DNA of 64,000 nt from Hyphomicrobiales bacterium (GTDB lineage Bacteria > Pseudomonadota > Alphaproteobacteria > Rickettsiales > JACKKO01), in contig JACKKO010000001.1 of assembly GCA_024236395.1 (NCBI GenBank), positions 17,345 to 81,344 of the forward strand, in the 5' to 3' direction. The notes beneath the pieces are model-generated. The model made no database searches. It had not been told where the DNA came from and saw nothing but the letters and a program-made list of their open reading frames with translations. Below, in pieces: positions 16,185-50,691 of the stretch. Position 1 is the first letter of the stretch. Every line of letters begins with the position of its first letter. The position numbers were made by a program, and so were the translations under genes.

Positions 16185-18698
16185 CTAGACGAAGTCGCCA
16201 GAGGCCAGGTCACCCGCAGTGACACCTGCCAGTTTGGCAATGACTTCAATTTCGCCAGAGTCAACGTCACCGCCGCTATCCACGGTGTCATCCCAGCGCC
16301 ACAGCACCACGTTACCGGAACCATCGTTGATGGCGAAGATCATGACATCATCCGCTGTCGCCGTGTAGTTCAGGTTGCCAATGACGTTCGCAGCACCGGT
16401 TTGCGAGGTCGCGGTTTGACCGCTGATATCCACCGCAATCACTGTACCCGTCACTGCAGTACCCACTGCGGTAACCGACTGGAAGCTGATACCTGTCGTG
16501 GTACCATCAACCAGAGCCGTACCATTGTAATCAATGTTATCATCGGAGGTTGTTCCGCCCGCGTTGAAGTTATTGATTACGTCACAGGCTGTACTGGAAG
16601 TACCGGTCACATCCGCTTCCGCGAATATGAAGGTATCCACACCATCACCACCATCCATGGTATCGTTACCCGTACCACCCGTGATGATATCGTTACCCGC
16701 ACCACCGGACAGCACGTCGTCATTCGCACCACCGGTAATACTATCAGCACCGGAGCCACCGGTAATACTGTCATTACCGTTACCGCCGGAAATGGTATCG
16801 TTACCCGTACCACCTTCCACCGTATCGGCAGAGGTGCTACCCGTAACCGTGATGGCCACACCGTCTTTACCAACAACGCGGCTACCACCCACCAGCGTTA
16901 CCGCGGAAGTGGTTCCGATAATCACATCATTGGTTGAGGTTACAGCGGAAGTATCGAGGCTGACCGCATCGTCACCCGCAATCTCCACACCGTGGCTGCC
17001 TGAAGTACCGGCCTTGTTAGTGGCATCAGAGGTTGCGACAAAGCTATCCGACAACACCAGCGTGTCCGTTCCCGAACCACCGGTCAGCGAAATCACTTCA
17101 AAACCAACAGTGTTAGCCAGATCGGTGCCGTTAATAGCGTATTCCACCGCACCGGTCAGTGACAGGGTATCCGTACCCGAGCCACCAATTAGTGAATCAT
17201 CAGTTGTCAGGTTATCGGCCGTGAATTTTACGACATCATTTCCGGCACCGCCATCAATGAAGTTATCACCGGTGCTACCATCCAGCGTATCGTTACCATC
17301 ACCACCGGAGATGGTTTCGTTACCACCGGCACCCGTGATGCTGTCGTCACCGGCATCACCACTCAGGCTGGAATTACCAGCACCACCCGTGATGATGTCG
17401 TTCCCGGCACCACCGCTGACGGTATCATCACCAGCAGAGGTGGACAGGCTGTCATCACCGTCACCACCACTGATGCTATCATCATTAGCACCACCGTCAA
17501 TGGTATCATTCCCGGCACCACCGTTAATGGTGTCGTTATTGGCACCGCCGTCAATGGTGTCATCACCCAGGTTACCATTCAGACTATCAGCACCGGCACC
17601 ACCGGAGATGGTATCGTTACCCTGACCGCCTTTCAGCGTATCCGCACCGGAACCACCGACCAGGCTGTCATCACCCGCGTTACCATTAACACTCAGCGTA
17701 CCCGTACCACCGCTGCCTGTGATGGTATCGTTACCATCACCGCCAACCACCGTGGTCACATCACTGTTTGTGGAACCCGGAGCAACGGTAATGCTGTCAT
17801 TACCCGCACCGCCATCCACGTTATCGGAACCCGAGGAACTGCTAATGGTATCGTTGCCGTCACCACCAGTAATCACATCGGCACCGGTACCGCCCGTAAT
17901 GCTGTCATCACCCAGGTCACCTCTCAGCGTATCATTCAGACCGCCACCGACGAGGGTATCATTCCCCTGGCCGCCGCGCAGACTATCACTACCTGCACCA
18001 CCACCCATACTATCGTCACCGGCGTTACCGTTGACGTTAAAGGAAGAAGCGGCACTACCCGCACCCGCCGTATTGAGAGAATCGTTACCGTCACCACCGT
18101 AGATCGTGATACCGGTCACCTGGCTTGCTGCCGTCACCGTGTCATCACCATTATCCCCGTAGATCACGTCATTACCGGTGCCGGCCGCAATCGAGTCGTT
18201 ACCCTGGCCACCGCGCAGCGTTTCACTACCCGTACCACCCGTAATGGTATCGTTCCCGGCATTACCTTGAATGTAGCTGCTGCCGGAACCGCCCGTAATG
18301 GAATCGGCACCGTCACCACCATACAGCTTGTCGCTACCACCACCGCTGGTGATGGTATCGTTACCACCCAGACCGAAGGCCAGGTCATTCACACCCGTAC
18401 CGCTAATCGAGTTGCCTACACCGTCCAGCGAGGTATTGGTTGTATTGTCACCCACCGTCACTGTGCTGCTATCGGAGAAGACCAGCGTGCTGCTTGTCAG
18501 CGCTTCGTCCGTGAAGCTGCTGATCGTCACATTACCAAGCGGCGTGCTGATCGTTAGATTCCCGCCACTTTCGGACAGCGTAATGTCCGTTGCGGAAATC
18601 AGCGTGTTATTGAAAATATCAAACGTGAGGGTATCCGTACCCGCCACGAAGCTGCTTATCGTCGTTCCAACTACCGACGAAAAATTGTAATTTGCCAT
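16185..18698 (-). CDS. RTX (hemolysin-type calcium-binding, GGxGxD nonapeptide) repeat protein, 837 aa, probable type I secretion substrate
   Basis: Dozens of GGxGxDxUx repeats (for example GGAGNDTIDGGANDDSISGGDGDD). No signal peptide. Acidic C-terminal tail ...GEIEVIAKLAGVTAGDLASGDFV of the T1SS C-terminal target type. Confidence 0.85.
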   Translation of the reverse strand: MANYNFSSVVGTTISSFVAGTDTLTFDIFNNTLISATDITLSESGGNLTISTPLGNVTISSFTDEALTSSTLVFSDSSTVTVGDNTTNTSLDGVGNSISGTGVNDLAFGLGGNDTITSGGGSDKLYGGDGADSITGGSGSSYIQGNAGNDTITGGTGSETLRGGQGNDSIAAGTGNDVIYGDNGDDTVTAASQVTGITIYGGDGNDSLNTAGAGSAASSFNVNGNAGDDSMGGGAGSDSLRGGQGNDTLVGGGLNDTLRGDLGDDSITGGTGADVITGGDGNDTISSSSGSDNVDGGAGNDSITVAPGSTNSDVTTVVGGDGNDTITGSGGTGTLSVNGNAGDDSLVGGSGADTLKGGQGNDTISGGAGADSLNGNLGDDTIDGGANNDTINGGAGNDTIDGGANDDSISGGDGDDSLSTSAGDDTVSGGAGNDIITGGAGNSSLSGDAGDDSITGAGGNETISGGDGNDTLDGSTGDNFIDGGAGNDVVKFTADNLTTDDSLIGGSGTDTLSLTGAVEYAINGTDLANTVGFEVISLTGGSGTDTLVLSDSFVATSDATNKAGTSGSHGVEIAGDDAVSLDTSAVTSTNDVIIGTTSAVTLVGGSRVVGKDGVAITVTGSTSADTVEGGTGNDTISGGNGNDSITGGSGADSITGGANDDVLSGGAGNDIITGGTGNDTMDGGDGVDTFIFAEADVTGTSSTACDVINNFNAGGTTSDDNIDYNGTALVDGTTTGISFQSVTAVGTAVTGTVIAVDISGQTATSQTGAANVIGNLNYTATADDVMIFAINDGSGNVVLWRWDDTVDSGGDVDSGEIEVIAKLAGVTAGDLASGDFV

Positions 18699-18922
18699 GA
18701 ATCTAACCCCTTATGTTAAATTACAGTTTACACCCAACTACCCTGCGGAACAGGGTACGTGGGATATATACCGCGTCCCCCTCCCTCCACAGAAGGAAGA
18801 AATCACTACGTCATGTAGACGAATCGCGTTAAAAGTACAAGCACTTTTACACGCAAAGTTCAACAGATTTTGCCAATACAACATATTTACCACACCATAA
18901 CGTGCCGCCACAAAATAAAGCT

Positions 18923-18938
18923 GTTGCATTAATGCAAC
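18923..18938 (-). terminator. Perfect 16-nt palindrome GTTGCATTAATGCAAC after the sulfotransferase gene (probable terminator)
   Basis: It starts 4 nt after the stop at 18942. On the minus strand it is followed by AGCTTTATTTTGTGG. Confidence 0.45.
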
Positions 18939-18941
18939 AAG

Positions 18942-20441
18942 CTACTTCATGCCACTTTCACCCTTTGGATAGCGTTCTTCCAAAACCATTCGCACTGATT
19001 CTGGCATCGCATATGTTGTGTTTTCAAACACACGTTTTTGCAATTCTGCATCCTGGATGTCATCATATATCTTAGCCGAGATTCCCAAATGCTGACAGAC
19101 CTTCTTCAGAAACTGACGCGGCTCCGTCTGTAACAGCTCAAATGGCAGCACACAGAACTGACTCTCCGGGAATACGGATTTCCAGCGCACCAGAATTCCT
19201 GCATAATCCCCTCGCTGGCGTGAGGCGTCAGAGATTACATGCCGCTCAAACCACTCCGGCGGCGTGGTCTCTGGCTTCCGCCCCTGTTTCGTTAAATCCA
19301 TCAGCGCATGCGACCAGGCCCGCTCCATAGGATCACGGGTGATGAACAGAATCCGTAATTTCGGATTTAACGCATAGATCTCTTTTATACGCTCCCGGCT
19401 AAGCAATGCATAGGCCGGCGTAATCTCACCCTGCACTTTCCCGGTTTCGGTAAAGTGGGAGCAATACCATTCTACCCCCCGCGCGTGATACATATCCCAG
19501 AAATGCATTTCTTTGGCTGGCATGTAGATATCCGGATGCCGTGCCAGTTGTGCATGCAGCCATGTCGTGCCTGCCTTCTGCGCACCGATACACAGAAAAT
19601 CAGGTTTGTACTGCTTTTGTATCCGGCCAAATTTCGGCAAGGAGAATATCCGTTTCTTTTTCTGCACTTCCGTTTCTTGCCGGAGAACCGTTTCATAGAG
19701 CGCCTGATCCAGCTCGGTTAGTGTTTCGATTTTTCTTTGCAATCCCGGAGCAAGTGGCTCTGGTGGCCGGGGGGCAGCATTCAGCAGCGGTACCGCTGCA
19801 TCATCAAACTGCCAGTCAAATATACGCTCCAGCCGTTCCACCATCTCAGGCAAATGCTCGGTTGTCCCGACCGCTGTGCACTGCTTTAGCCGCTCCTCTG
19901 CCAGATAAAACAAATCCGGCACATCAAGCGGCGTGTCGCCATAGGCCATTAACCGCCCGAGGCTAGGGGGTACTACCGGTTGGTCTTCATGATCCAGCAC
20001 TTCCCTGGCCAGATTCCATGTTTCGGCGAGGTTCCGCGTCTGGAAGTTGGTCACCAGCTTTACCAAGGGCGGATATTCCAGCATCTCCTCCACGGAAACA
20101 TCGCGTCCGGCAAAGACCGGGTGCATCCAGTGGCTTTGCTCGCGCTGAATATGCCGGCAATGCGAAACCGTTCGCGCCACCGGGTCACGCAACAGGGTAA
20201 TTACCCGTGGCCGCGCGGGCAGATACGGCACCAGCGTCCAGCCCATATGCCCACGGATAAAAAGGTATTCTCCCAATGTGTTGGCATCGCCCCGCCGGAC
20301 AAACTCCGCCAGCTCGTGTGTCAGGTAAACCGGTGCAATTTCCTGCTCCGTAAACCGGGATTCCAGAAGCGTACGAAAGGATGTACCCGCCGTTTTAGCA
20401 ATATGCAGGAAATAGATTTGCCGCCCGTTCCGTGTGTGCAT
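18942..20441 (-). CDS. Two-domain sulfotransferase (N-terminal and C-terminal PAPS-dependent sulfotransferase-like halves)
   Basis: N-half: HIAKTAGTS (5'-PSB-like) and LLRDPVARTVSH (3'-PB-like). C-half: IGAQKAGTTWL and ITRDPMERAWSH. 499 aa. Confidence 0.75.
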   Translation of the reverse strand: MHTRNGRQIYFLHIAKTAGTSFRTLLESRFTEQEIAPVYLTHELAEFVRRGDANTLGEYLFIRGHMGWTLVPYLPARPRVITLLRDPVARTVSHCRHIQREQSHWMHPVFAGRDVSVEEMLEYPPLVKLVTNFQTRNLAETWNLAREVLDHEDQPVVPPSLGRLMAYGDTPLDVPDLFYLAEERLKQCTAVGTTEHLPEMVERLERIFDWQFDDAAVPLLNAAPRPPEPLAPGLQRKIETLTELDQALYETVLRQETEVQKKKRIFSLPKFGRIQKQYKPDFLCIGAQKAGTTWLHAQLARHPDIYMPAKEMHFWDMYHARGVEWYCSHFTETGKVQGEITPAYALLSRERIKEIYALNPKLRILFITRDPMERAWSHALMDLTKQGRKPETTPPEWFERHVISDASRQRGDYAGILVRWKSVFPESQFCVLPFELLQTEPRQFLKKVCQHLGISAKIYDDIQDAELQKRVFENTTYAMPESVRMVLEERYPKGESGMK

Positions 20442-20450
20442 GATAGCCCT

Positions 20451-21740
20451 TTATAGCCCCTTGATTGAGGCTTGTGCTTCAAAATCGACGGTACCAGTGG
20501 CCGTCAGCTCTGCCTCATCGGCCACCCGGAACATACAGGCATCCACAATCCGGTGCAGCATCACCCGCTCACCCTCCACCATGCCACTGCATCCGGCATT
20601 GGTAAAATAATTCCCCGGCAACAACCGGCAGCAAAAACGAAAGCAGACTTCCAGCACCGTGCCTTCCGGTAGTGACGCAATGGCCTGCTTTTCGGTATGC
20701 GAGGTAGCACCCCCCAGCACCACGCCGCGCAGCGTCTTCAGATTCATGCCAAAGCGCACCCCGGAAGCCTCTTCCGTAAACGTGACCGTATAATGATACT
20801 GGTAAGTTTCGCCCCGCGTTAGTACATTGACTTCTTCCCCGGCCAGTGTCGTGATGCGTGGGTTAGAAATCTCCGCCCCGCGGGGAACATACGTGACCGT
20901 ACTTTCCGGCTGCATCCCCGCATCCAGCTGGCCACCTTCCTCCACGCCCTCCTGGGGAACACCACCACGTATTGCCTCACGGATTTCCCCTACCTGCGCC
21001 TCCGGCGCAAACAGCAAACGGTGATACTGCCCGAGCACAGCCTTGGGCGATCCATCCATCAGCATCTCGCCGCCATCCATCAGGATGGCACGGGTACAGA
21101 GCTCCTGCACGGTCCCCGGCGCATGCGATACAAATAAGATCGTTGTGCCATTCTGCTGCATCTGCTGAATCCGGGAAAAGCATTTGCGCTGGAATGCCGC
21201 ATCTCCCACCGAAAGCGCTTCGTCCACAATCAGAACCTCCGGGTCTGAGGCCACTGCTACGGCGAAGGCCAGCCGTACATACATCCCGCTGGAATAGGTT
21301 TTAACCGGTTGGGCAATATGCGCCGCATCAATGCCAGAAAACGTTACGATAGCATCGTATTTTTCGGTAATCTCCCGCCGGGACATCCCCAGCAGCGCTC
21401 CGTTCATATAAATATTCTCACAACCGGAAAATTCCGGGTTGAACCCCGCCCCCAGTTCCAGCAACGCCGAGATACGCCCATCTACCTTCACCGTCCCCCC
21501 GGTAGGAAACACCGTCCCACAGATCAGTTGCAGCAAGGTGGATTTACCCGAACCGTTCCTCCCCACAATCCCCACCGTTTCCCCACGCTTAATTGTCAAG
21601 TTCAGCGGCTTTAACGCTTCAAACGGGGTGAACCATTGCCTCCACCGGAAGATATATTGTTTCAGCCGGTCAGACGGGTGGGCATAGAGAAAATACGTCT
21701 TGGAGAGGTTCTGGATGGTAATGGCCACATCAGAGCACAT
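20451..21740 (-). CDS. wzt: ABC-2 polysaccharide/O-antigen exporter ATP-binding protein with C-terminal extension (Wzt/TagH-like)
   Basis: Walker A GRNGSGKST, signature YSSGMYVRLAFA, Walker B LIVDEALSVGD, then about 180 aa of non-NBD C-terminal domain. Start set at MCSDVAITIQNL, overlapping the wzm stop. Confidence 0.85.
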   Translation of the reverse strand: MCSDVAITIQNLSKTYFLYAHPSDRLKQYIFRWRQWFTPFEALKPLNLTIKRGETVGIVGRNGSGKSTLLQLICGTVFPTGGTVKVDGRISALLELGAGFNPEFSGCENIYMNGALLGMSRREITEKYDAIVTFSGIDAAHIAQPVKTYSSGMYVRLAFAVAVASDPEVLIVDEALSVGDAAFQRKCFSRIQQMQQNGTTILFVSHAPGTVQELCTRAILMDGGEMLMDGSPKAVLGQYHRLLFAPEAQVGEIREAIRGGVPQEGVEEGGQLDAGMQPESTVTYVPRGAEISNPRITTLAGEEVNVLTRGETYQYHYTVTFTEEASGVRFGMNLKTLRGVVLGGATSHTEKQAIASLPEGTVLEVCFRFCCRLLPGNYFTNAGCSGMVEGERVMLHRIVDACMFRVADEAELTATGTVDFEAQASIKGL

Positions 21741-22533
21741 CGGCAAACCCCCGTTGCGTTTTGCGGAACCAGACATAGCCTGAGATTGCCACCAATATGG
21801 AGACTGCCAGATATTTCAGCCACACACTCCATAGCGGCACCTGCCCCCACAGCGTCACCCGGCGCAATTCATCCACGATATAGGAAAGCGGGTTGAAGTA
21901 TACATAATCTCGCACCAATTCCGGCAAGGCCTCCGCGGGATAAAAGATCGTACTCAGAAATAGCAGGATGGTGGTCAGCACACTCATCAGCTGCGCAATA
22001 TCACGCAGATACACCCCGAGCGAGGCCAGCCACCAGCCCACTCCCAGCATGAGCACCACAAACGGGAGCAACACCACTGGCACATAAAGCGCTGTCCAGG
22101 GGATACTGCCCATGATCCAGAACATCCCGGCAAACAGCACCGCCAGCCCGACCAAAAACTGGAACCCGGCGCGCCCCACCAGCACCGGCATAAGCACCGG
22201 AAGAGGAAACACCACGCGTTTGACGTAATTACTATTGGAAAGAACCAGCGCAGGCGCTCCCATCAGGATTTCCGAGAACCAGCCATGTAGCAACAGGCCA
22301 GAGAACAGCATCAGGGAAAAACCGGCATTATTCTCCGCCGCAATCAACGGCGTCCCGCCCCAGCGCGCTTTAAATACAAACCCGAATACCAGCGTATACA
22401 CGCCCAGCATCAAAAGCGGCGTTACCAGCGCCCAGAGCACCCCCAATACTGAGCCGCGATACCGGGCGGCGATCTCCCGCCGCGTCAGCGTCCATAACAG
22501 GAAGAACCGCGAAGAGTACGTACCCGCCGCCAT
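21730..22533 (-). CDS. wzm: ABC-2 type transporter permease (Wzm-like)
   Basis: 267 aa, six predicted TM helices, and the N-terminal LTRREIAARYRGSVLGVLWA motif typical of ABC-2 permeases. Confidence 0.85.
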   Translation of the reverse strand: MAAGTYSSRFFLLWTLTRREIAARYRGSVLGVLWALVTPLLMLGVYTLVFGFVFKARWGGTPLIAAENNAGFSLMLFSGLLLHGWFSEILMGAPALVLSNSNYVKRVVFPLPVLMPVLVGRAGFQFLVGLAVLFAGMFWIMGSIPWTALYVPVVLLPFVVLMLGVGWWLASLGVYLRDIAQLMSVLTTILLFLSTIFYPAEALPELVRDYVYFNPLSYIVDELRRVTLWGQVPLWSVWLKYLAVSILVAISGYVWFRKTQRGFADVL

Positions 22534-22542
22534 ATCAGGACG

Positions 22543-23436
22543 CTAGTACGCGCCCGCCTTTCCATCATCCAGCACAAAGTAATAGCCTTGTCCCTTATGC
22601 TGTTGTTTTACCGGCATATCAACACGGTGGTTGATCCCGCTATAATGTGTGATGATCGTCCGGCGCTGAAGATTACGGTTTTTGGGCTCTGTTCCCCGAT
22701 GCATCAGACGCGAATGCCAGATTAGCACATCGCCCTTTTCCGCCAGGAAATACTGCGACTTGATGCCTTTTTCCTTCACCTTGTCTTCAAAAAGCTGTGT
22801 GAGAAACCGTTCGGATTGTTTTGGCCAGGTTTCCTTCCCCCGCTCTTCCGGGGAGATATATTCCAGTACCTTATCGCGCCGCACCAAATCCCATTTATGT
22901 GAGCCCGGTACATATTCAAACGGCCCGGCATCCGGATGAATCGTATCCAGCGCCATCCACACCGCCACATACCAGCCAGCCACCCCCGGCGGGTTCAGAT
23001 ATTCATCCTGGTGCCAGTTGCGCTCGGTACTGACCCAGCCCGTCAGGTTCAGGTGCATCCCCATAGGCTCGCCAAATAACTCTTCCAGCTTGCCTGTCAG
23101 CGGCTGATAAAGGCAAAGGTCTTTAATTTCCTCCACGTTCATGTACGGAATCGGCGTAGGATACCCGCCTGGCAAGTTTAGCCGTTCACGTTTCGCCACA
23201 TAGGCGTCTACCAGATTCTCTGGCAGGAAATCTTTCAGAATGAGGAAGCCCTGATCGCGAAAAATTTTCTGGTCTACAGTCAGCTTGGAAATATCAAGCA
23301 CCTTGCGGTCAATTAGCGGGATGCGATCATCCGGCATATCCTCCACCAGATCGTCCCAACGCGGCATCTGCTCCCATTTCGGGATGTCTGCCTGCGGCTG
23401 TTTCTTCAAGAATTTAAGCATATGTGCCTCTGTCAT
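22543..23436 (-). CDS. Phytanoyl-CoA dioxygenase (PhyH) family Fe(II)/2-oxoglutarate oxygenase
   Basis: HxD facial-triad context WHQDEY and a distal His in WHSRLMHRG. 297 aa. First gene of the wzm-wzt-sulfotransferase operon. Confidence 0.75.
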   Translation of the reverse strand: MTEAHMLKFLKKQPQADIPKWEQMPRWDDLVEDMPDDRIPLIDRKVLDISKLTVDQKIFRDQGFLILKDFLPENLVDAYVAKRERLNLPGGYPTPIPYMNVEEIKDLCLYQPLTGKLEELFGEPMGMHLNLTGWVSTERNWHQDEYLNPPGVAGWYVAVWMALDTIHPDAGPFEYVPGSHKWDLVRRDKVLEYISPEERGKETWPKQSERFLTQLFEDKVKEKGIKSQYFLAEKGDVLIWHSRLMHRGTEPKNRNLQRRTIITHYSGINHRVDMPVKQQHKGQGYYFVLDDGKAGAY

Positions 23437-23493
23437 ATGGGTTAGGCATGCACGGAGTATTACCGGATATCACGCCAAGGGTCAATGCGGGCG

Positions 23494-23856
23494 CTAGCGC
23501 AGGAGTAATGGCATAGTTACCACGCCCCACACCAGCAAGGCCAGTACCACACTTACCAGCACGGCGGCTGAAGCAGCATCCTTGGCCTTACCCGCCAGCG
23601 CGTGATGGTCTTTTGTCACCAGATCTACCACCGCTTCAACCGCGGTATTCATCAACTCGACTACCATCACTAACAGAATCGCACCAAGGAGTAATACCTG
23701 TTCCGAAATGGATACCGGCATCCACCACACCAATGGCAGTGCAACGACTAATGCTACCACCTCCAGCCGAAAAGCCTGTTCCGTTTGCCAGGAGGCCTTA
23801 AGCCCCATAAGAGCATAGGTGGTGGCTGCAATAAGTTTTATGACGACTTTATGCAT
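23494..23856 (-). CDS. dgkA: Diacylglycerol kinase (prokaryotic DgkA)
   Basis: 120 aa, three TM helices, conserved ELMNTAVEAVVD motif. Confidence 0.85.
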   Translation of the reverse strand: MHKVVIKLIAATTYALMGLKASWQTEQAFRLEVVALVVALPLVWWMPVSISEQVLLLGAILLVMVVELMNTAVEAVVDLVTKDHHALAGKAKDAASAAVLVSVVLALLVWGVVTMPLLLR

Positions 23857-23857
23857 T

Positions 23858-26800
23858 TTAAGCCGCTTTGCTTAGACCAATTTTTAGAGCCAGCCCATCC
23901 AGTGCACTTTCTGAAACATGGGTTTCATTGGCAGCATCTTCTGTGCTCAGTGCCTCTGCCAGCGTCTGGGATTGCACATAATCCCGGTTAGCCTCCAGCG
24001 CCGCCCGTACTGTATCCGGGCCTTCCACTGCTAACCGAATCGTATCGGAAATATGCAACCCGGCCGCTTTACGGGCCTCCTGCACCAATCGCACGATATC
24101 CCGCGCGATACCTTCGGCCTTCAGTTCCGGCGTGATTGCCAGATCCAGCACCACCAGCGCGTCGTTGCTGGAGAGCGCCTGTGCGCCCTTGATGCCCGGC
24201 TTTGCTTCCAGCTTGATTTCGTATTCGCCGTCCTGCAGCATTTCGCCCCCGGCTTCCACAGCACCATCGGCGTGCACCTGCCAGTTGCCCTGGCGGGCCG
24301 CACCAGCCACCGCTTTCATTTTTCCACCCAGTCGCTTCCCGGCCACGGGGAAAAAGATCGCCAGCGTACGCTCTGCCACACCTTCCAGCGCATCGGAGAA
24401 CTGCACCTGCTTGACGTTGATTTCATCGGCAATCAGTGCCGCAAAAGGCTTCAGACGTTCCGCCCCCGCGCCCAGGAAAGTGAGGGACGCCAGCGGTTGC
24501 CGCACCTTGGCATTTGCCCGGCTGCGTACCGCCAGTGCGGCGGTACATACATCGCGCACCCGGTCCATATCCGCCATCAGATCAGCCTCTTCCGGAATCG
24601 CCGACACCTCCGGGAAGTCCTGCAGATGGAGGGATGCACTCTCGCCGCCCTGCAATCCCTGCCAGACGGCTTCCAGTGTTAGTGGCAGCAACGGGGCGGC
24701 GGCACGGCACATCAGCTGCAGTACGGTAAGAAGCGTATCATACGCGGCCTGCTTATCCGAATCGGGAATCGAGAACCGGGAATCGGGAATATCGCTTCCT
24801 GATTCCGGTATCGCCCGCCAGAACCGGTCGCGGCTGCGGCGAATATACCAGTTATTCAGCACCTCAAAGAAATCCTGCACCGCCTGGCAGGCATGCGGTG
24901 TATCAAAGGCCGCCAGCGCCGAATCAATCATCTCCACCGCCTGCCGGCATTTGGCGAGGATATAACGGTCCATGAGGCTGGTTGATGATTGATGGTCTGT
25001 GGTTGATAGTGCGAGTAATGACCTGGCCTGCACCCCATCGGCATTGGCATAGAGCGTGAAGAAATGATAGGCGTTCCAGATCGGCTTGATGGCCAGCCGC
25101 ACCACGTCGCGAATATCGCTGCCGTCGGTACTGACAATCAAATCCCCGCCATGCATCACATTACCGGAAATCAGGAACCAGCGCATGGCGTCCGCGCCGT
25201 AGGTATCGAACATCTCCACCGGGTCAGCGTAGTTCTTCAGGCGCTTGGAAAGCTTTTTATGCCGGCCGAATTCGTCTTTCTGCTCGCTCAGGATCACCCC
25301 GTGGCAGATACAGTTCTTAAACGGCTCACGGTCAAATAACGCGGTGGAAAGCACCATCAGCGTATAGAACCAGCCGCGTGTCTGCGCCACATATTCCACG
25401 ATGAAATCCGCCGGGAAATGCTGCTCAAACCAGTCCTTATTTTCAAACGGGTAATGCACCTGCGCAAACGGCATGGAGCCGGACTCAAACCAGCAATCAA
25501 ACACGTCCGGCACGCGCCGCCAGACTTCACCATTTTCCTCTTTTATCAGGCTATCGATGAAGGGCTTATGCAGATCCGTTATTGTATAACGCCCCTGCTC
25601 CGGCTTACTAGCCTCCGCATTGGGCTTTAGCTCAAGGCTGCCGGATTTTACTAAATCCGCTTTTTGTTCCTCGCTCATGCTAGGTAAAAAGAACTCTTCC
25701 AACTCGGCAATGGAGCCAAACACCTTCACCTGCCCGCTCTCATTCTTCCAGACCGGGATCGGCGTTCCCCAGAAGCGGTTACGGGAAATCGACCAGTCCC
25801 GTGCATTTTCCAGCCAGTTGCCAAACAACCCGTCGCGGATATGGCCGGGAATCCAGTGGATATTCTGGTTCAGTTCCACCATGCGCTGCTTGAATTTCGT
25901 TACCTCCACATACCAACTGGGCACCGCTTTATAAATCAGCGGCTTGTCCGTCCGCCAGCAATGGGGATAATTGTGGACAATCACATCCTGCCTGATCAAT
26001 TGCCCGCGCTGCTTCAGCCAGTCGATGATCCGCAGATTCACCAGCCCGAATTTCTGCAGCTGTTCGTCTTTGTACGGCTCATCACCGGCTTTTTCCGTCG
26101 CTGCGATGACATTCAACCCTTGCAGTTTCAAATCCGGCAGATCAAAAATCTCTGCCGTATACGCGCCTTTTTCATCCACCGGACACACGATATCAATCCC
26201 GTGTTCGGCACAGACGCGCTGGTCATCCTCCCCGAATCCCGGCGCCAGATGCACCACGCCCGTGCCCTCGCCCTCTTCAATGAAATCCGCCGGAAGCACC
26301 CTAAACGCCTTCGGCTGGTCTTTGAAATACGGGAACAGCGGCTCATACGAAAGGCCGATGAGTTCATTTCCAGAAATAAATGTAATTCCTGTGTTGGTAA
26401 AATCCTCGATATGCTGCTCCGGAATTAATAGTATGTAGTAATACTCACCGTCATATGAGTATACCTTAACTTGTTTGTTTTTAGACTCTTTTGATTTTTC
26501 TAAAGAATTATTATGATTGAAACCGTAAGATCCCGTTTCAGCTATTAATATTTTATTATTTTTCTTAACTTTCTCATTACTACATCGATATCCTAGACTT
26601 TTAATTGACCTTATAAAGCAATTCTTTCCTTCCAAGTAGACTGCGTAGTCCATCTCTTCACTCACCGCCAACGCCAGATTGCTCGGCAATGTCCAGGGGG
26701 TGGTTGTCCAAGCGAGGAGGTAGTAATTTTCTGCTTCACACACGGCTTTAATTTTTTTTGGTATCTCCTTCAGCTTAAACGCCACGGTGACGGCTTTATC

Positions 26801-27550
26801 CTCACGTTCGCGGTAGGAATTATCAAGCCGGGTTTCAAAATTGGAAAGTGGGGTTTCCGCCGCCCAGCTATAGGGCATCACGCGGTAGGACTCATAAACC
26901 AGCCCTTTTGCATGCAATTGCTTGAATGCCCACAAGACCGATTCCATGTAGTCCCGGTCCATGGTTTTATAGTCATTATCAAAATCCACCCAGCGGGCCA
27001 CCCGGTGAATATAACGTTGCCACTCGCCGGTATATTTCATCACGCTTTCGCGGCAATGCGCGTTGAATTTATCCACACCGAATGCCTCAATCGCCGCCCG
27101 GCCGGAAATCCCCAGTTGCTTCTCCGATTCCATCTCCGCCGGCAGCCCGTGGCAATCCCAGCCAAAGCGGCGCTGCACGCGGTGGCCTTTCATGGTCTGG
27201 TAACGCGGGTACACATCCTTCACGCAAGAAGTCAGCAAATGCCCGTAATGCGGCAACCCGTTGGCAAAGGGCGGGCCATCGTAAAAAATCCATTCGTTGG
27301 TAACATTACCTCCCGCTTCGGCCTCCTTGCCTTCGCAATGAGGCGCGCTCAAGGCTGACTCGGACGTACTGTCCTCGCTCTTATTTCCCGATTCCCGATT
27401 CCCGGTTCCCTGTTCTGGTATTATCGCTGGACGCTGCACAACCGAAGCCTCAAACGTATGCTCGGCGTCCCATTGCTTCAGCACCTGCTCTTCCAGTTTG
27501 GGGAAGTCCGGGCTGGAGATGATATCGGGATAATAGGGTTTTTTGCTCAT
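23858..27550 (-). CDS. ileS: Isoleucine--tRNA ligase, type 2 (eukaryote-like) with lineage-specific insertions
   Basis: HIGH motif PHYGH, KMSKS variant KLSKRLKN, and editing-domain WTTTPWTLPSN. Start placed at MSKKPYYPDI (ATG 27550). The listed ORF continues to 27817, but that extension overlaps the divergent bufA gene. Confidence 0.9.
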   Translation of the reverse strand: MSKKPYYPDIISSPDFPKLEEQVLKQWDAEHTFEASVVQRPAIIPEQGTGNRESGNKSEDSTSESALSAPHCEGKEAEAGGNVTNEWIFYDGPPFANGLPHYGHLLTSCVKDVYPRYQTMKGHRVQRRFGWDCHGLPAEMESEKQLGISGRAAIEAFGVDKFNAHCRESVMKYTGEWQRYIHRVARWVDFDNDYKTMDRDYMESVLWAFKQLHAKGLVYESYRVMPYSWAAETPLSNFETRLDNSYREREDKAVTVAFKLKEIPKKIKAVCEAENYYLLAWTTTPWTLPSNLALAVSEEMDYAVYLEGKNCFIRSIKSLGYRCSNEKVKKNNKILIAETGSYGFNHNNSLEKSKESKNKQVKVYSYDGEYYYILLIPEQHIEDFTNTGITFISGNELIGLSYEPLFPYFKDQPKAFRVLPADFIEEGEGTGVVHLAPGFGEDDQRVCAEHGIDIVCPVDEKGAYTAEIFDLPDLKLQGLNVIAATEKAGDEPYKDEQLQKFGLVNLRIIDWLKQRGQLIRQDVIVHNYPHCWRTDKPLIYKAVPSWYVEVTKFKQRMVELNQNIHWIPGHIRDGLFGNWLENARDWSISRNRFWGTPIPVWKNESGQVKVFGSIAELEEFFLPSMSEEQKADLVKSGSLELKPNAEASKPEQGRYTITDLHKPFIDSLIKEENGEVWRRVPDVFDCWFESGSMPFAQVHYPFENKDWFEQHFPADFIVEYVAQTRGWFYTLMVLSTALFDREPFKNCICHGVILSEQKDEFGRHKKLSKRLKNYADPVEMFDTYGADAMRWFLISGNVMHGGDLIVSTDGSDIRDVVRLAIKPIWNAYHFFTLYANADGVQARSLLALSTTDHQSSTSLMDRYILAKCRQAVEMIDSALAAFDTPHACQAVQDFFEVLNNWYIRRSRDRFWRAIPESGSDIPDSRFSIPDSDKQAAYDTLLTVLQLMCRAAAPLLPLTLEAVWQGLQGGESASLHLQDFPEVSAIPEEADLMADMDRVRDVCTAALAVRSRANAKVRQPLASLTFLGAGAERLKPFAALIADEINVKQVQFSDALEGVAERTLAIFFPVAGKRLGGKMKAVAGAARQGNWQVHADGAVEAGGEMLQDGEYEIKLEAKPGIKGAQALSSNDALVVLDLAITPELKAEGIARDIVRLVQEARKAAGLHISDTIRLAVEGPDTVRAALEANRDYVQSQTLAEALSTEDAANETHVSESALDGLALKIGLSKAA
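24756..24790. repeat. Tandem heptamer array (tccgaat cgggaat cgagaac cgggaat cgggaat) inside ileS
   Basis: Read directly from the sequence. It translates on the coding (minus) strand to IPDSRFSIPDS. Confidence 0.8.
27384..27411. repeat. Tandem heptamer array of the same unit in opposite orientation (tttcccg attcccg attcccg gttccct) inside ileS
   Basis: Its reverse complement shares an identical 18-mer, GAACCGGGAATCGGGAAT, with 24773-24790. It translates to GTGNRESGN. Confidence 0.8.
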
Positions 27551-27571
27551 AGGCAGGGTTTTAGCCTGCCT
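27551..27571 (-). promoter_or_regulatory. Perfect 7-bp-stem hairpin abutting the ileS start codon
   Basis: AGGCAGG-gttttag-CCTGCCT occupies the 21 nt immediately 5' of the ATG. I see no obvious Shine-Dalgarno outside the stem. Confidence 0.3.
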
Positions 27572-27740
27572 GCGGCGGGAATGCCAGTCTTTTTCATTAA
27601 GGCAGCGGAATCCCGTTGGCATTCCGGCAAAAGCCATGTAACCTGCCCGCCGCCTGGCGCGAATACCAGGCAGATCGCCCCCAAATAGGTAATCATTAGG
27701 GGACATCGTTAGCGCAATGTTATTAACAACAGGAGACTGT

Positions 27741-28034
27741 ATGAAGAATTCGACAAAAATGCTGGCCGCCGCGGTGATGACCATGGGTGCTACTTCAGTA
27801 ATCGGCATGGCTGCCACCGCTGAAGAAGGTGCGGAGAAAGAAAAATGCTACGGCATTGTCAAAGCCGGGAAGAATGACTGCGGGGCCGCCGATGGTTCAC
27901 ATTCCTGTGCCGGCAGTGCCACGGCAGATAGCGGTGCCAATGAATGGATTTTCCTGCCCAAGGGCACGTGTGACCGCATTGTCGGCGGTTCTACCACCGC
28001 ACCAGGTGCTGAATCCGACGAATCCGCTTCCTAA
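27741..28034 (+). CDS. bufA: DUF2282 / BufA1-type bufferin RiPP precursor (Sec signal peptide, 4 conserved Cys)
   Basis: AGGAGA RBS 5 nt upstream of ATG 27741. Signal peptide MKNSTKMLAAAVMTMGATSVIGMAATA. Core EKCYGIVKAGKNDCGAADGSHSCAGS...EWIFLPKGTCDRIVGG matches the DUF2282 pattern. Confidence 0.8.
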   Translation: MKNSTKMLAAAVMTMGATSVIGMAATAEEGAEKEKCYGIVKAGKNDCGAADGSHSCAGSATADSGANEWIFLPKGTCDRIVGGSTTAPGAESDESAS

Positions 28035-28062: not shown

Positions 28063-28929
28063 GTGTCTGAGCGCATCGTTTCCCCTGCTCCGTCCCTTAC
28101 GGGTGTTGGCATCGGCCTGCGCCACCCCCATTTTCAGGATATCCTTGATACCCAGCCAGAGATTCCCTGGCTGGAAGTCCATCCGGAGAATTATTTTTTC
28201 CCTGGCAGTTCCGCCTGTCACTGGCTGGAGGCGATTCGTGCGCATTACCCCCTAAGCGCCCACTGTGTCGGGCTTTCGCTGGGCTCTGCCACACCGGTGG
28301 ATATGGAACATCTGGCCAGTTTGCAGGGTTTTATCGAACGTTACGCTCCGAGCCTCGTTTCCGACCATCTTTCCTGGAGTGCGGTAGACGGCACCTTCCT
28401 CCCGGATTTACTGCCACTACCCTATACCGAGGAGGCACTAACAGTGCTGTGCCGGAATATTAGCCAGGTGCAGGAATCGCTGAACCGGCAGATTCTGATC
28501 GAGAACCCTTCCAGCTACGCACAGTTTGCCGCCTCTTCCATCCCAGAATGGGAATTCCTTAAAGAAGTGGTGAAACGCAGCGGCTGCGGGTTGTTGCTGG
28601 ATGTGAATAATGTCTATGTCTCGTGTCAGAATCATGGCTGGAATAGTGACGTTTATCTTGAAGCCCTGCCGCACGAAGCGGTGCAGGAGTTGCACCTGGC
28701 AGGGTTCAGTATCTCCATAGAGGGCAATGACCGGCTGCTGATTGATACCCATAGCGCCCCGGTTACCCCGGAGGTGTGGGAGCTCTACGCCCAGGTCATT
28801 CGGAAACTGCCGAACGTACCGACACTCATCGAATGGGATAAAGACATCCCGCCACTGGCGACTTTACTGGCGGAAAAACAGAAGGCCGAAGCGATCGCCC
28901 GGGAGGAAAGTGTTCATCAGGCAACCTGA
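28063..28929 (+). CDS. bufB: DUF692 / MNIO-family (MbnB-like) RiPP maturase, BufB-type
   Basis: 288 aa. N-terminal GIGLRHPHF...[10 protein letters not shown], plus SDHLSW and IENPS motifs of the UPF0276/DUF692 TIM-barrel iron enzymes. It lies directly downstream of the DUF2282 gene. Confidence 0.85.
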
Positions 28930-35234: not shown

Positions 35235-36665
35235 TTAGAAACTATACCGCACCCCGGCATAGATATTGCTCGTATCCTCAAACTGCCCAAAGAAGGAGGT
35301 ATGGCGCTGGCCGTAAAATAGGTTCAGCCCTGTCTCCAGTTGCCAGTGGTCGTCCAGCTTGTAATTGACGCTGGCACGTGTATACCCGTCACCTGCCGAG
35401 GGGCTGTAGAAATTAAACAGGGAAAGTTTCAGGTTCTGCTGCATCAGCAGCTGGGTCAGACGCAGGGTCAGCACCTGGTGATTTGCATCCTCTACCACCG
35501 CCCCAGCCGGCAGGCTTTGCCGATAGGCCGTATGATCCTGCATATGCTCTATGTAATATTGCATTGACCCGGTTAATTCCGGCACCAGCTCCTGCTCATA
35601 CCCCACCAGCACCCGCCATTCGCTGTTACGCACCAGCGGGTTGACACCTCTCCGGTCATCGCGGCTGTCATAATAACCAAGTTCGGCATTGGCAATCCCT
35701 GCCAGCACTGGCCCACGTACACTGGCACCATAGACGGAAAGACGCGGGAACGTATACCGCCCACTTAAAGGGTTCTGCCCGGCCGGGCTTTTCCAGTAGC
35801 CCTGATAGTAATAGAGCGCGGTTTCATAAGCCTCTACCAACCGGTGCAGACGCAGCGCCAGTTCATCCCCATGGAACCAGCCATCCCGCGCCTCGGTATT
35901 TACCGGAAGGTTTCGCCCCGCCACCGAGCCAGCTCCGGCATTGTAATACGAGATGCGCCGCCCATCGATAAAACGGTCAGCATCAAAGCGTGGGGTATAC
36001 ACCACATCCAGATTCACTTCCGGGTGATAAAACGCCAGCTTCACCGCATCTGAAGGCGCTTTCAGATATTCCACATCGCGCCCGATGAAAAAACTGTTCC
36101 AGTCCTTCGGGAATAAATCGTTGATGAAAAGCAGATCGCCCGTCCCCCAGGTCAGAATCTGCCGCCCCAGCTTCACATCCGCATTCTCAGCCGGACGGAA
36201 AAGCACATAAGCCTCACGTACATCCAGCACCCCGTCTCCATTTTCCAGATCGGGTTCGTATTCATCTGCCACCGGATCATAGAGCAGGTCCCCGCTCAGC
36301 CCTACAGTCAACGATTCGTTACTCTGGAGAGCCTGGAGGTGTAAGCGCCCTTCGCCCAGGCTAGCGCGTTTCTGCTGCGTATCCCGATGCAGGCGCATGC
36401 CATAGCGCGTCTCTATGAACCCACTCAGGTCAAACGGTAATGCATCCCGCCACACATCTGCCCGCTCTTGCGCAACGGCTTCCTCTTTATTGCCATCCCC
36501 AAGACCCATCGGCAGCGATGGTTCGGAAGAAAGCCCTTGCGGTAACGCTGGCACATCTGCAGGCGATACCACGCCCAGTCCCATAGGCAGGGCGGGCTCT
36601 TCTGCATGTGCGACCGGGTTCAGAAGCATACACCCCAGCAGAGAAAAGAGCACCGGTCGCTTCAT
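35235..36665 (-). CDS. Outer-membrane beta-barrel protein (porin-like) of the RND/LolA-like cluster
   Basis: Signal peptide, alternating beta-strand pattern and terminal ...GVRYSF. The N-terminus carries three (P)ALP(M/Q)GL(G/S) repeats. Confidence 0.6.
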   Translation of the reverse strand: MKRPVLFSLLGCMLLNPVAHAEEPALPMGLGVVSPADVPALPQGLSSEPSLPMGLGDGNKEEAVAQERADVWRDALPFDLSGFIETRYGMRLHRDTQQKRASLGEGRLHLQALQSNESLTVGLSGDLLYDPVADEYEPDLENGDGVLDVREAYVLFRPAENADVKLGRQILTWGTGDLLFINDLFPKDWNSFFIGRDVEYLKAPSDAVKLAFYHPEVNLDVVYTPRFDADRFIDGRRISYYNAGAGSVAGRNLPVNTEARDGWFHGDELALRLHRLVEAYETALYYYQGYWKSPAGQNPLSGRYTFPRLSVYGASVRGPVLAGIANAELGYYDSRDDRRGVNPLVRNSEWRVLVGYEQELVPELTGSMQYYIEHMQDHTAYRQSLPAGAVVEDANHQVLTLRLTQLLMQQNLKLSLFNFYSPSAGDGYTRASVNYKLDDHWQLETGLNLFYGQRHTSFFGQFEDTSNIYAGVRYSF

Positions 36666-36674
36666 GGGTATTCC

Positions 36675-37460
36675 TTATCGCAGGTATTTCCGTGGGGCCG
36701 CACGCAGATAGCGCTCGGTGAAAATATCCTCCGGCAGTCCGATATCATAGCCAACTTTGCCGTATTCCATGACCGTATACCCACCAAGATTCTTATCCGA
36801 CATCTTAGACTGCGTCACCGTGGCATGCCCATCAATCGTATCCACCTTCAGCGCCTCATAGGTACGATACGCGGTATCGGCACTGTCATAGAATTCCGTT
36901 TTCACCGGGATAAAAGTCGTCTTATGAATCCAGTTTTTGTAATAGGCAAATTCCACCGCGTCCTTTTTCTTCGGCACACTTTTCAGCACGTAGAAATTAT
37001 CGGTTTCCTCCACCAACGTATGCGTATCCTCACTGGGGGTGCGGCCGGAAACATCTTCATAGAAGAAATGCGACCCCACAAAACTGGTGCGCTCATCGCT
37101 GGCAGCGATCCGTTTCACCAAATCCAGCGCTGGCAAATATAGCCAGCGGTCATCCTCTGCCTTGGTATGTTTCCATACCAGAAATGCCGTTTTATTGACG
37201 TCTGCCGGGCGGGAAAAATACACGTAGAATTTCTGTTCGGTATCCCCCTTATCGTCCGTGTCGGTACGCAGGATCGTGAAATCGCGCGTGCGCTCGCGGC
37301 CCTGCGCATCCGTAATCACCATATGCACGCTGGCACGGCCATCCTTACCCTGATAATAGGCGGCATGATTTGCCTTCGCCACAATCTCCTCCACCGAAAG
37401 CGCCCAGGCCGGCGTGGTGAGCAATGCCAGCAGAATGGTCAGTATATATCGACTACGCAT
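36675..37460 (-). CDS. Outer-membrane lipoprotein-sorting (LolA-like) protein
   Basis: Signal peptide MRSRYILTILLALLTTPAWA. The sequence pattern is that of LolA_like proteins usually found next to MMPL/RND exporters. Confidence 0.7.
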   Translation of the reverse strand: MRSRYILTILLALLTTPAWALSVEEIVAKANHAAYYQGKDGRASVHMVITDAQGRERTRDFTILRTDTDDKGDTEQKFYVYFSRPADVNKTAFLVWKHTKAEDDRWLYLPALDLVKRIAASDERTSFVGSHFFYEDVSGRTPSEDTHTLVEETDNFYVLKSVPKKKDAVEFAYYKNWIHKTTFIPVKTEFYDSADTAYRTYEALKVDTIDGHATVTQSKMSDKNLGGYTVMEYGKVGYDIGLPEDIFTERYLRAAPRKYLR

Positions 37461-37462
37461 AT

Positions 37463-40042: not shown

Positions 40043-40051
40043 CAACGCCTC

Positions 40052-49168: not shown

Positions 49169-49417
49169 ATGAAAAAGAATATGGGAAAAACAGATAAATC
49201 GATTCGTTTAGTGGCTGCCGTTATTTTGATAGCCCTGATTGCAACAGGAAACGTCACCGGCACTCTGGCGATTATTCTGGGAGTGGTCGCTGCTGTGTTT
49301 ATCGCCACTTCTCTAATTAGTTTCTGCCCGCTTTACCCCATCCTCGGCATCTCCACCTGCGGCAAATGCTGCGGGGGCGGATGTAAAAAAGACAGCGATG
49401 CCGGAAACGCCGCCTAA
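49169..49417 (+). CDS. DUF2892 membrane protein with a Cys-rich C-terminal tail
   Basis: Two TM helices and the ...SFCPLYPILGISTC end typical of DUF2892, followed by the extra tail GKCCGGGCKKDSDAGNAA. It overlaps the DUF2063 start by 20 nt. Confidence 0.6.
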   Translation: MKKNMGKTDKSIRLVAAVILIALIATGNVTGTLAIILGVVAAVFIATSLISFCPLYPILGISTCGKCCGGGCKKDSDAGNAA

Positions 49418-50186
49418 TCATACTTCGCTGGCACAGCTTCAGCAGGCATTTTGTCGCCTGATTCTGGATGACGCACCTGTGGCTTCCGGCATGCTTGCCA
49501 GTGCTCATCGCGACCCGGCACGTATCCAAAATGTTTATCGCAACAACCTACTGGGTGCGGCAGGGGGTGCGCTGGCACTGACATACCCCGTCTCACAGGC
49601 TTTGGTGGGAGATCGTTTTTTTCAACATGTCATCACTCGCTATATCCAGAAGAACCCACCCACAACAGGCAATCTGGATTGTTACGGGGAAGATATTCCC
49701 ACCTATCTAAGCACACTCCCGGACGTTGCATCACTGCCATACCTGCCCGATGTCGCCTGGCTGGAATGGGCCTGGCACCAAAGTAGCCTGGCGGAAAACG
49801 CCCCGGTACTGATGCCGGAAGCACTGCAATCCCTACCGCCTGAGACCCTGCCGGAACTGTGTTTCATCCCGCACCCGGCGCTGCGCATGCTCCACTCGGA
49901 ATATCCTGTACACCGCATCTGGGCACTGCATCAGGACGAAGCCAACCAAGCATCCACCGTGGATCTTTCAGAGGGTCCGTGCCAGCTGGCCATCACCCGC
50001 CCGGCCCGCCAGATCCTAATATCGCCGCTGGAAGAACCAGAATACCAACTGCTTTCCCGAATGGTTAAAGGGAACTGCCTGGGTGATGCCGTGGAGAAAA
50101 TCTACGCGGCGTTTCCGCATTTTGACCTTGCATTTTCACTGGAGCGGCTTATCGTAACGGGCTGTTTCAGCGGCATAAAGCCCTGA
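49398..50186 (+). CDS. bufC: DUF2063 protein (BufC/HvfC-type RiPP maturation partner)
   Basis: The pattern LAQLQQAF...VYRNNL...LTYPV...LG...F...YLPDVAWLEWAWH matches DUF2063. It is followed by DoxX, as in bufferin operons. Confidence 0.75.
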   Translation: MPETPPNHTSLAQLQQAFCRLILDDAPVASGMLASAHRDPARIQNVYRNNLLGAAGGALALTYPVSQALVGDRFFQHVITRYIQKNPPTTGNLDCYGEDIPTYLSTLPDVASLPYLPDVAWLEWAWHQSSLAENAPVLMPEALQSLPPETLPELCFIPHPALRMLHSEYPVHRIWALHQDEANQASTVDLSEGPCQLAITRPARQILISPLEEPEYQLLSRMVKGNCLGDAVEKIYAAFPHFDLAFSLERLIVTGCFSGIKP

Positions 50187-50205
50187 TATAAACTGGGAGA
50201 ATTGT

Positions 50206-50691
50206 ATGGCACGGCATCATAAGGAATTACCCCTTTGGCTCCGCGTGGCAGATATTAAACTGCGCGTGGCCGAACAATTTACTGATCCGGTAATCCTGGG
50301 TATTCGCCTGTGGCTGGCCAAGGTCTTCTGGACATCGGGCACCCTGAAGCTGGATACGGGCTTTCTGGGCATCGGCCAGGGCAACTGGGAATCGACACTG
50401 ATTCTGTTTGAATACGAATACCAGGTACCGATTCTGACACCTCAGGCCGCCGCCTATCTCTCCACCGCGGCAGAACTGATCTTCCCGATCCTGTTGGTAT
50501 TGGGACTGGGGAGCCGGATTGCTGCCTTTGGCCTGTTGTTTATGACCGCCGTGATCGAGTTTACGTACCAACACAGCCCCGAACATGTGATCTGGGCGTT
50601 ATTTCTGGGTACCGTACTGACCTACGGGCCGGGCCGTATCGCACTGGATTTCCTTATCAGCCGTCGTTTTCTCCCCCATCGGCACGACTAA
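50206..50691 (+). CDS. DoxX-family membrane protein
   Basis: 161 aa, four TM helices, DoxX-like GIRLWLAKVFWTSG...ELIFPILLVLGLGSR. Confidence 0.75.
   Translation: MARHHKELPLWLRVADIKLRVAEQFTDPVILGIRLWLAKVFWTSGTLKLDTGFLGIGQGNWESTLILFEYEYQVPILTPQAAAYLSTAAELIFPILLVLGLGSRIAAFGLLFMTAVIEFTYQHSPEHVIWALFLGTVLTYGPGRIALDFLISRRFLPHRHD

Follow-up and report, generated by a model that had tools for sequence, protein, structure and literature searches.

What does a Wzm/Wzt-type ATP-binding cassette (ABC) exporter carry when its neighbouring gene encodes a double sulfotransferase (ST) and none of the genes around it encodes a glycosyltransferase (GT)? The question is raised by a minus-strand unit at 18942-23436 of a 64 kb stretch of contig JACKKO010000001.1 (hereafter the window, meaning that whole stretch), which belongs to an uncultured alphaproteobacterial lineage with metagenome-assembled genomes (MAGs) labelled Rickettsiales. 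Open reading frame (ORF) calls and Pfam resolve the unit into four ORFs encoding a PhyH-type dioxygenase, Wzm, Wzt and a two-domain ST. In the E. coli O9a system, the C-terminal domain of Wzt binds a non-reducing-end cap that is added by the bifunctional terminator WbdD, and a preliminary description of the window had proposed that the two-domain ST plays this part here, with export licensed by a sulfate cap. The features of the encoded proteins point clearly to a predicted export of a sulfated glycan by the unit. That sulfate is the cap read by Wzt, and so licenses export, is a tentative proposal to which the comparative genomics lends a nearly even chance.

The Wzt nucleotide-binding domain (NBD) matches that of Aquifex aeolicus Wzt (8dku, E-value 1e-71, residues 8-249 of 429) and, at 1e-54, TarH/TagH. 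The preliminary description had Wzt extending about 180 residues past the NBD, and the end of the A. aeolicus alignment at 249/429 bears this out. Within the extension, a Pfam Wzt_C match (3.3e-29) covers model positions 8-142 of 143. A pairwise search with this domain fails to reach solved carbohydrate-binding domains (CBDs); a profile of 29 related CBDs matches those of E. coli O9a (2R5O, 2.8e-8), A. aeolicus (8DKY/6O14, 5e-8) and Raoultella terrigena (5HNO, 0.011), with all three solved CBDs aligned across the whole domain. Whether the extension is Wzt_C-like had been set in advance as a test of the proposal, and on these matches, which are matters of sequence homology only, it is by prediction a genuine Wzt carbohydrate-binding domain. 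An AlphaFold2 model of the CBD from a three-sequence alignment is all-beta, with a mean predicted local distance difference test (pLDDT) score of 52, too poor for use.

The profile alignment also bears on what the CBD might read. In A. aeolicus Wzt, Trp362 stacks on the methyl cap, and its mutation abolishes binding (PMC9445017). The A. aeolicus segment T346-V-A348-L-H350...Y-H-W362 aligns with N-A-G...L-H-R in the clade of related CBDs, which places Arg409 of the window Wzt (441-residue numbering; codon 20550-20552) opposite Trp362. Arg is also found at this position in two orthologous loci (L001 and L002), in P0121/P0122 and in L008, all found independently of the motif, as well as in E. coli O9a Wzt (LDRRYD), whose cap is a methyl-phosphate. 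An Arg at the aligned cap-pocket position would fit an anionic cap.

The enzyme encoded after wzt is, as first described, a tandem sulfotransferase: it comprises two domains, each keeping the motifs for binding 3'-phosphoadenosine 5'-phosphosulfate (PAPS). The N-domain carries K16TAGTS (5'-phosphosulfate-binding loop, PSB), H65 and R85DPxxRxxS93 (3'-phosphate-binding motif, PB), and the C-domain carries GAQKAGTTW (K289AGTT), KEMHFWD and TRDPMERAWS (R369DPxERxxS377), all invariant in three orthologs. The C-domain matches heparan sulfate 3-O-sulfotransferase 1 at 8.5e-16, with the PSB loop, the catalytic Glu311 (E311-x-HF) and RDPxER..S aligned, and the N-domain weakly matches heparan sulfate 6-O-sulfotransferase (6e-3); the nearest solved relatives of the two domains are carbohydrate O-sulfotransferases. 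Both domains, keeping their PSB/PB motifs and catalytic residues, are predicted to be PAPS-dependent sulfotransferases. The two domains are rarely fused. Searching 1.84 billion representative proteins exhaustively returned one cluster that matches both, the only full-length homologs are P0001 and P0002 (54-55% identity), and a metagenome scan with the ST alignment returned no relatives. Taken separately, N-domain homologs occur as single-domain proteins adjoining wzm-wzt in L004, and C-domain homologs form the N-terminal domain of proteins of 850-1290 residues with GT1, GT2 or GT61 modules.

Comparison with related lineages defines the part of the locus that is inherited together. L001 and L002, in which wzm, wzt and the ST gene are closely coupled, read ileS-(x)-dgkA-wzm-wzt(Wzt_C)-ST, and their proteins are 57-60% (IleRS), 59-62% (Wzm), 67% (Wzt), 54-55% (ST) and 38-44% (DgkA) identical to those of the window; a fourth lineage, represented by the 'Rickettsiales' MAG locus L045, reads ileS-phyH-wzm. 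Because phyH is missing in L001 and L002 and dgkA is missing in L045, the core is wzm-wzt-ST beside ileS, vertically inherited in three lineages, with phyH and dgkA variable. We therefore rejected dgkA as a module member, given its low identity compared with Wzt and its absence from L045, where ileS leads directly into phyH-wzm. In L002 (257-1440), dgkA overlaps wzm by 4 nt, which suggests co-translation in that genome; at the same position of L045 the gene is absent.

The case for a cap draws mainly on what is encoded next to related CBDs. We retrieved 34 metagenome loci via Wzt hinge and CBD peptides only, with CBDs 31-55% identical to that of the window (a word-indexed search with the CBD gave only two matches). 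At least 1 kb of downstream sequence is available for 25 of these loci, and in 14 of the 25 the same strand carries an ST-domain gene no more than 700 bp after wzt. Adjacent STs are also seen in L016 (partial), L024 and L009, and when near-identical loci are counted once there are about 12 ST-positive versus 8 ST-negative lineages. Hidden Markov models built from the ST domains of the window itself brought up almost nothing beside related Wzts; this association was seen only after Pfam showed other ST families there. The adjacent STs come from at least three families (a type with the motif GMHRSGTS, Sulfotransfer_2 and the window's types), and the common feature is therefore sulfation rather than one gene. 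The GMHRSGTS type is the commonest; in L018, L021, L022 and L035 it scores above the Pfam Sulfotransfer_3 cut-off, and its profile matches almost only sulfotransferases in the PDB, weakly (5e-4 and up).

Most of the ST proteins encoded after wzt have a long coiled coil. By a crude heuristic, coiled-coil-like segments of 70-190 residues follow the ST domain in L006 (291-403), L008, L017, L022 (430-607), L024 (430-574), L031 (401-575), L041 (290-442) and L044 (370-559), and the same heuristic applied to ordinary proteins of the window gives segments of 35-43 residues only, in 3 of 23. Many of the ST-coiled-coil proteins continue into WbsX, GT2, GT1 or RgpF modules: according to Pfam, the gene after wzt encodes Sulfotransfer_3, WbsX and GT1 in L021, Sulfotransfer_3, WbsX and RgpF in L035, and Sulfotransfer_2, WbsX and GT2 in both L040 and L041, with GT1 added in L041 only. 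Proteins of 1150-1750 residues in which an N-terminal ST is followed by a coiled coil and by GT modules are encoded in L017, L018, L021, L031, L035, L040, L041, L044 and L006, and directly follow a CBD-bearing wzt in all of these except L006, whose Wzt has no Wzt_C domain. The signature of WbdD and WbbB is a terminator, a coiled-coil ruler and optional polymerase modules, encoded beside a CBD-bearing Wzt (PMC11231755). By analogy, the ST-coiled-coil(-GT) layout next to wzt is exactly this terminator architecture.

Two further loci, in which the association was found from the ST side, show how varied it can be. In Rhodovibrionaceae bacterium A322 (GCA_052078155.1; L008, 5894-20908), the order is wzm-wzt(CBD)-ST-ST-P0022-epimerase-GT2x3, and in P0022 a window-type ST domain is joined to one of the GMHRSGTS type and to a coiled coil. 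The cluster is complete and seemingly comes from an isolate genome, which would make it the best candidate for experiments on an ST terminator. In the Nitrospiraceae MAG NP85 (L004, 3870-16608), seven ST genes of at least three families lie on both sides of wzm-wzt(CBD), and Pfam found no GT among the genes tested in this "sulfotransferase island".

With terminator-like STs as neighbours of its CBD clade, a sulfate cap is plausible as a class. GTs encoded elsewhere would build a polyprenol-linked glycan at the cytoplasmic face of the inner membrane, and the two-domain ST, whose PAPS-binding motifs are intact, would add one or two O-sulfates to an acceptor on that glycan. The Wzt CBD, homologous to known cap readers, may then bind the sulfated non-reducing end, a ligand suggested by the ST-coiled-coil association of the clade, and its binding would license export through WzmWzt. 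Having no coiled-coil ruler, the window ST would cap chains without measuring their length. We describe the locus as a capped-glycan-type Wzm/Wzt with a rare, ruler-less tandem ST as its neighbouring modifier, detached from GTs. A generalisation, which we advance with reserve and consider to have somewhat less than an even chance of being right, is that sulfate represents an uncharacterised class of chain-terminating, export-licensing cap, read by the Arg-bearing Wzt CBD clade and installed by environmentally widespread ST-coiled-coil(-GT) terminators, of which the window holds a stripped-down, ruler-less form with its GTs elsewhere.

Several observations weigh against a sulfate cap. As the preliminary description stated, the unit contains no GT, polymerase, ligase or sugar-nucleotide gene; Pfam, run on about 60 ORFs covering the 64 kb, extends this to the whole window, where kdsB (55566-56312) is the only related gene, and likewise detects no PAPS genes (cysDN/cysC) there. 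The lack of GTs does not make the unit special, given that orphan wzm-wzt pairs are known elsewhere, including in Microcystis (PMC4390846). One such pair, L015 (8485-10639), consists of wzm and a CBD-bearing wzt whose product is 51% identical to the window Wzt, lies between suf Fe-S assembly genes and dus/moaA, and has no ST or GT nearby. A coiled-coil ruler marks every characterised terminator, and the crude heuristic, which is not DeepCoil or COILS, finds no coiled-coil-like segment in the window ST; together with the absence of nearby GTs, this means that two hallmarks of capped systems are missing at the locus. The proposal that this particular enzyme is the terminator has the true CBD, the intact ST motifs and the terminator-like neighbours of the clade in its favour, and the missing coiled coil against it.

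The comparative evidence has its own counterweights. About 40% of related CBD loci have no adjacent ST (L015, L023, L025-28, L030, L036, L043), and the 14/25 adjacency stands without a base rate across all Wzt_C transporters. The Arg/Trp pocket correspondence is drawn from aligned sequences alone. HRI[LV]DA[CV]M was one search pattern, and the invariance of the motif and of the Arg among L011-L044 is by construction and was discounted, so that for conservation of HRIxDA only L001, L002, P0121/P0122 and L008 count. In Aeromonas salmonicida, a wzt-ST-wbbB arrangement is present, and no sulfate is reported in the O-antigen (PMC4483657).

The strongest alternative to a cap is that the ST decorates the backbone, sulfating internal residues before ABC export while the CBD reads another terminal feature or a sulfated repeat, so that sulfate terminates nothing. 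The presence of multiple ST genes around wzm-wzt, seven in L004 and three in L008, fits such bulk sulfation as well as it fits a cap, the window ST has no ruler, and a pair of predicted-active ST domains hints at more than a single site of sulfation. There are precedents: Cobetia marina makes a sulfated capsular polysaccharide (CPS) with backbone sulfate, using sulfotransferases and KpsMT export (PMC11766843), and the sulfated capsule of Mesorhizobium loti, with KpsS, likewise has backbone sulfate (cited in PMC11625862). However, backbone decoration leaves unexplained why an N-terminal ST with a long coiled coil and GT modules so frequently follows wzt directly in this CBD clade, in the place of a terminator, and a terminal cap is what the characterised Wzt proteins with a CBD recognise (PMC9445017, PMC11231755). 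We regard backbone decoration as a strong rival, though less likely than not to be right.

Whether PhyH contributes to a cap, by oxidising the terminal residue so that the export signal is formed together with sulfate, is a separate matter. The residues H142-x-D144, H246 and R258, which form the iron triad and the 2-oxoglutarate Arg, are invariant in 40 homologs. The AlphaFold2 model (pLDDT 93.8) gives Foldseek probability 1.0 to SnoN, MysH, PhyH and EctD and also resembles proline hydroxylases, and these fold matches indicate no specific function; by motif and modelled fold, the protein is predicted to be a member of the Fe(II)/2-oxoglutarate dioxygenase family. A part in capping would accord with this intact catalytic triad, with the ranking of SnoN and SnoK, both acting on a sugar moiety, among the top fold matches, and with the close spacing of phyH and wzm (a 9-nt junction in the window, a 2-nt gap in L045), which suggests co-transcription in two genomes. 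In the window, phyH is probably co-transcribed with the rest of the unit.

Against this stands the distribution of the gene. L001 and L002 keep wzm-wzt-ST and lack PhyH, and no homolog was found among the 44 loci L001-L044. The family numbers more than 1000 proteins at E 1e-3, of which the best 120 are 48-73% identical to the window protein, and homologs at 60-63% identity are encoded by stand-alone genes in unrelated contexts. Genes of the family (L047-L051) usually stand alone, are sometimes fused to methyltransferases and once form a tandem pair (L048). In L045, where the DUF5915 tail of ileS precedes phyH, PhyH is 73% identical to its window counterpart compared with 56% for Wzm, suggesting an independent, constrained function. 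The earlier suggestion of PhyH hydroxylation as part of the cap therefore has nothing beyond adjacency behind it, as two of the three full orthologous loci lack the gene and the family is mostly stand-alone, and we consider such a role improbable. PhyH is instead a lineage-specific accessory, its gene added in front within the window's sub-lineage.

Least probable, to the point of being very unlikely, is export by the unit of a small, sulfated glycolipid or lipid, in the manner of NodIJ/NodH or of a sulfolipid, which PhyH may oxidise, an explanation that would account for the missing GTs and draws on the small-molecule substrates of PhyH's fold relatives, the transport of lipids, drugs and Nod factors by other ABC-2 transporters and the adjacency of dgkA in three lineages, but that is countered by NCBIfam scores far under the cut-offs for NodI (85.7 bits vs 424) and DrrA (108 vs 312), by O-antigen Wzt and TagH as best solved relatives, by the Wzt_C CBD, by the GT-rich clusters in which relatives of the CBD and ST domains sit, and by the absence of dgkA in L045 and of PhyH in L001 and L002. 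No NCBIfam model matches the ST, and NodIJ-like and DrrAB-like assignments were both rejected on these scores.

The coordinates of the unit and its flanks are collected in the table. The four minus-strand genes have the spacing first described, read from the sequence: phyH and wzm are separated by TAG, 9 nt, ATG, and wzt and the ST gene by TAA, 9 nt, ATG, and wzm and wzt overlap by 11 nt, given a Wzt start at ATG 21740, an overlap also called in L001, L002 and L008. The longest wzt ORF starts at 21776, which gives the 441-residue numbering. The palindromic terminator reported to end the unit is present as a T-tailed hairpin right after the ST stop (18940-18921; 8 pairs and a 4-nt loop, then CTTTATTTTG), the longest stem in the region. 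It is statistically unexceptional, as terminator-like sites occur at chance (5 found versus 5.6 expected) and the fold z-score reaches only -1.25; the position of the hairpin directly behind the stop codon is suggestive. Upstream of the unit lie dgkA, after a gap of 57 nt, and ileS. The promoter-like site in the gap fits at 9 of 12 positions; sites of this kind occur as often as expected by chance. The longest ileS ORF has a GTG start, encodes 1319 residues and has about 170 of them before the synthetase domain; its true start is probably further downstream.

Features of the exporter unit and its immediate flanks, in window coordinates (CBD residues in 441-aa numbering).
Feature	Position	Strand	Details
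phyH	22543-23436	-	297 aa, first gene; PF05721, 1e-19
wzm, ABC-2 permease	21730-22533	-	267 aa; PF01061, 5.5e-24, model positions 3-208/211
wzt	20451-21740	-	429 aa from ATG 21740; ABC_tran 4e-22, Wzt_C 3.3e-29
Wzt_C CBD	20484-20882	-	residues 299-431; contains HRIVDA motif
ST gene	18942-20441	-	499 aa; Sulfotransfer_1/_3
ST N-domain	19656-20441	-	residues 1-262; HIAKTAGTS, H65, LRDPVARTVS
ST C-domain	18966-19613	-	residues 277-492; Sulfotransfer_1 5e-17, Sulfotransfer_3 9e-21
terminator-like hairpin TTGTTGCATTAATGCAACAG then CTTTATTTTG	18911-18940	-	directly after ST stop
promoter-like site TTGACC, 18 nt, AATACT	23456-23485	-	candidate; dgkA-phyH spacer
dgkA	23494-23856	-	PF01219, 9e-34; context, outside module
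ileS	23858-27817	-	context; conserved locus anchor in all four related lineages

The gene directly downstream of the unit encodes an RTX calcium-binding repeat protein of 837 residues with 16 repeat stretches (16185-18698, minus strand), which partly resembles SMc04171-type and serralysin C-terminal repeats, with no type I secretion genes seen nearby. It was rejected as a partner of the unit, as its gene lies beyond the hairpin with its own 243-nt leader; in L001 and L002, the sequence ends too near the ST gene to compare. Between ileS and cobT lies a gene of the MbnB/TglH/ChrH (DUF692) type for modification of ribosomally synthesised peptides (28063-28929, plus strand, 6e-107), and 20 kb from it a DUF2063 gene sits beside a DoxX gene (49398-50691, plus strand); DUF2063 is, we presume, the usual partner of the DUF692 gene. 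A trio encoding MMPL/RND (sterol-sensing-domain-like), LolA-like and DUF1302 proteins (35235-40045, minus strand) forms a cluster of the lipid or outer-membrane export type that appears unrelated to the exporter unit.

A sulfate cap is not described in the literature found on Wzt and sulfotransferases; the 2019 census of terminators and CBDs by Mann, Kimber and Whitfield, which is said to carry the polymerase-terminator model over to many species and types of glycan and may predict ST terminators, falls outside that scope. Capping ties together how the chains of O-antigens and related glycans are terminated, how their length is controlled and how they are exported. The only demonstrated caps, as given in 2022 and 2024, are methyl, (methyl-)phosphate and Kdo (3-deoxy-D-manno-octulosonic acid), plus non-obligatory pyruvate, and sulfate is unlisted (PMC9445017, PMC11231755), in agreement with the preliminary description's remark that such a sulfate-capped export checkpoint is not known to have been described. 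If true, a sulfate cap would add anionic, PAPS-dependent chemistry to the export checkpoint, would explain many unannotated ST-coiled-coil-GT giants in metagenomes and would imply CBDs that read sulfated sugars and could be used as glycan probes. If sulfation is only decoration, the locus would be an ordinary gene set, split up, by which an uncultured alphaproteobacterium makes a sulfated polysaccharide.

Among known systems, the WzmWzt-WbdD pathways of E. coli O9a and Klebsiella pneumoniae O3 share with the window an ABC-2 permease, a CBD homologous to 2R5O, a two-domain modifying enzyme encoded beside wzt and an Arg at the position aligned with the cap pocket. WbdD, however, consists of a kinase, a methyltransferase and a coiled coil, whereas the window enzyme is a double ST without a coiled coil or membrane-anchoring tail, and the window locus lacks a WbdA-type polymerase or other GT and has a CBD too divergent for pairwise detection. 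K. pneumoniae O12 WbbB, with its N-terminal terminator, coiled coil and GT polymerase, resembles the relatives in L017/18, L021, L031, L035, L040/41, L044 and L006, encoded directly after a related Wzt, whereas the window ST is unfused to coiled coil or GT; the WbbB terminator is a beta-Kdo glycosyltransferase, and that of the relatives would be a sulfotransferase. A. aeolicus WzmWzt, which exports a methyl-capped O antigen (6O14, 8DKY, 8DKU), provides the best solved NBD homolog and a CBD matched by the clade profile, but where its methyl pocket has Thr346, Ala348 and Trp362, the alignment places Asn, Gly and Arg of the window CBD (PMC9445017). The KpsMT-exported sulfated capsules of C. marina and M. 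loti likewise involve cytoplasmic PAPS-dependent glycan sulfation and ABC-2 export, and differ in having no CBD, backbone sulfate, and clusters that carry kpsE/D/S/C, GT and PAPS genes (PMC11766843); a KpsMT-like assignment of the window was rejected, as its Wzm reaches only 35.8 bits where the KpsM cut-off is 300, and no kps genes occur in the window. The uncharacterised L008 offers a further parallel, with a Wzt 47% identical over its full length, HRIxDA included, and a tandem ST-ST protein, P0022, one domain of which is 41% identical to the window C-domain. Unlike the window ST, P0022 goes on into a coiled coil (residues 555-624), and its locus further encodes two other STs, an epimerase and three large GT2 proteins.

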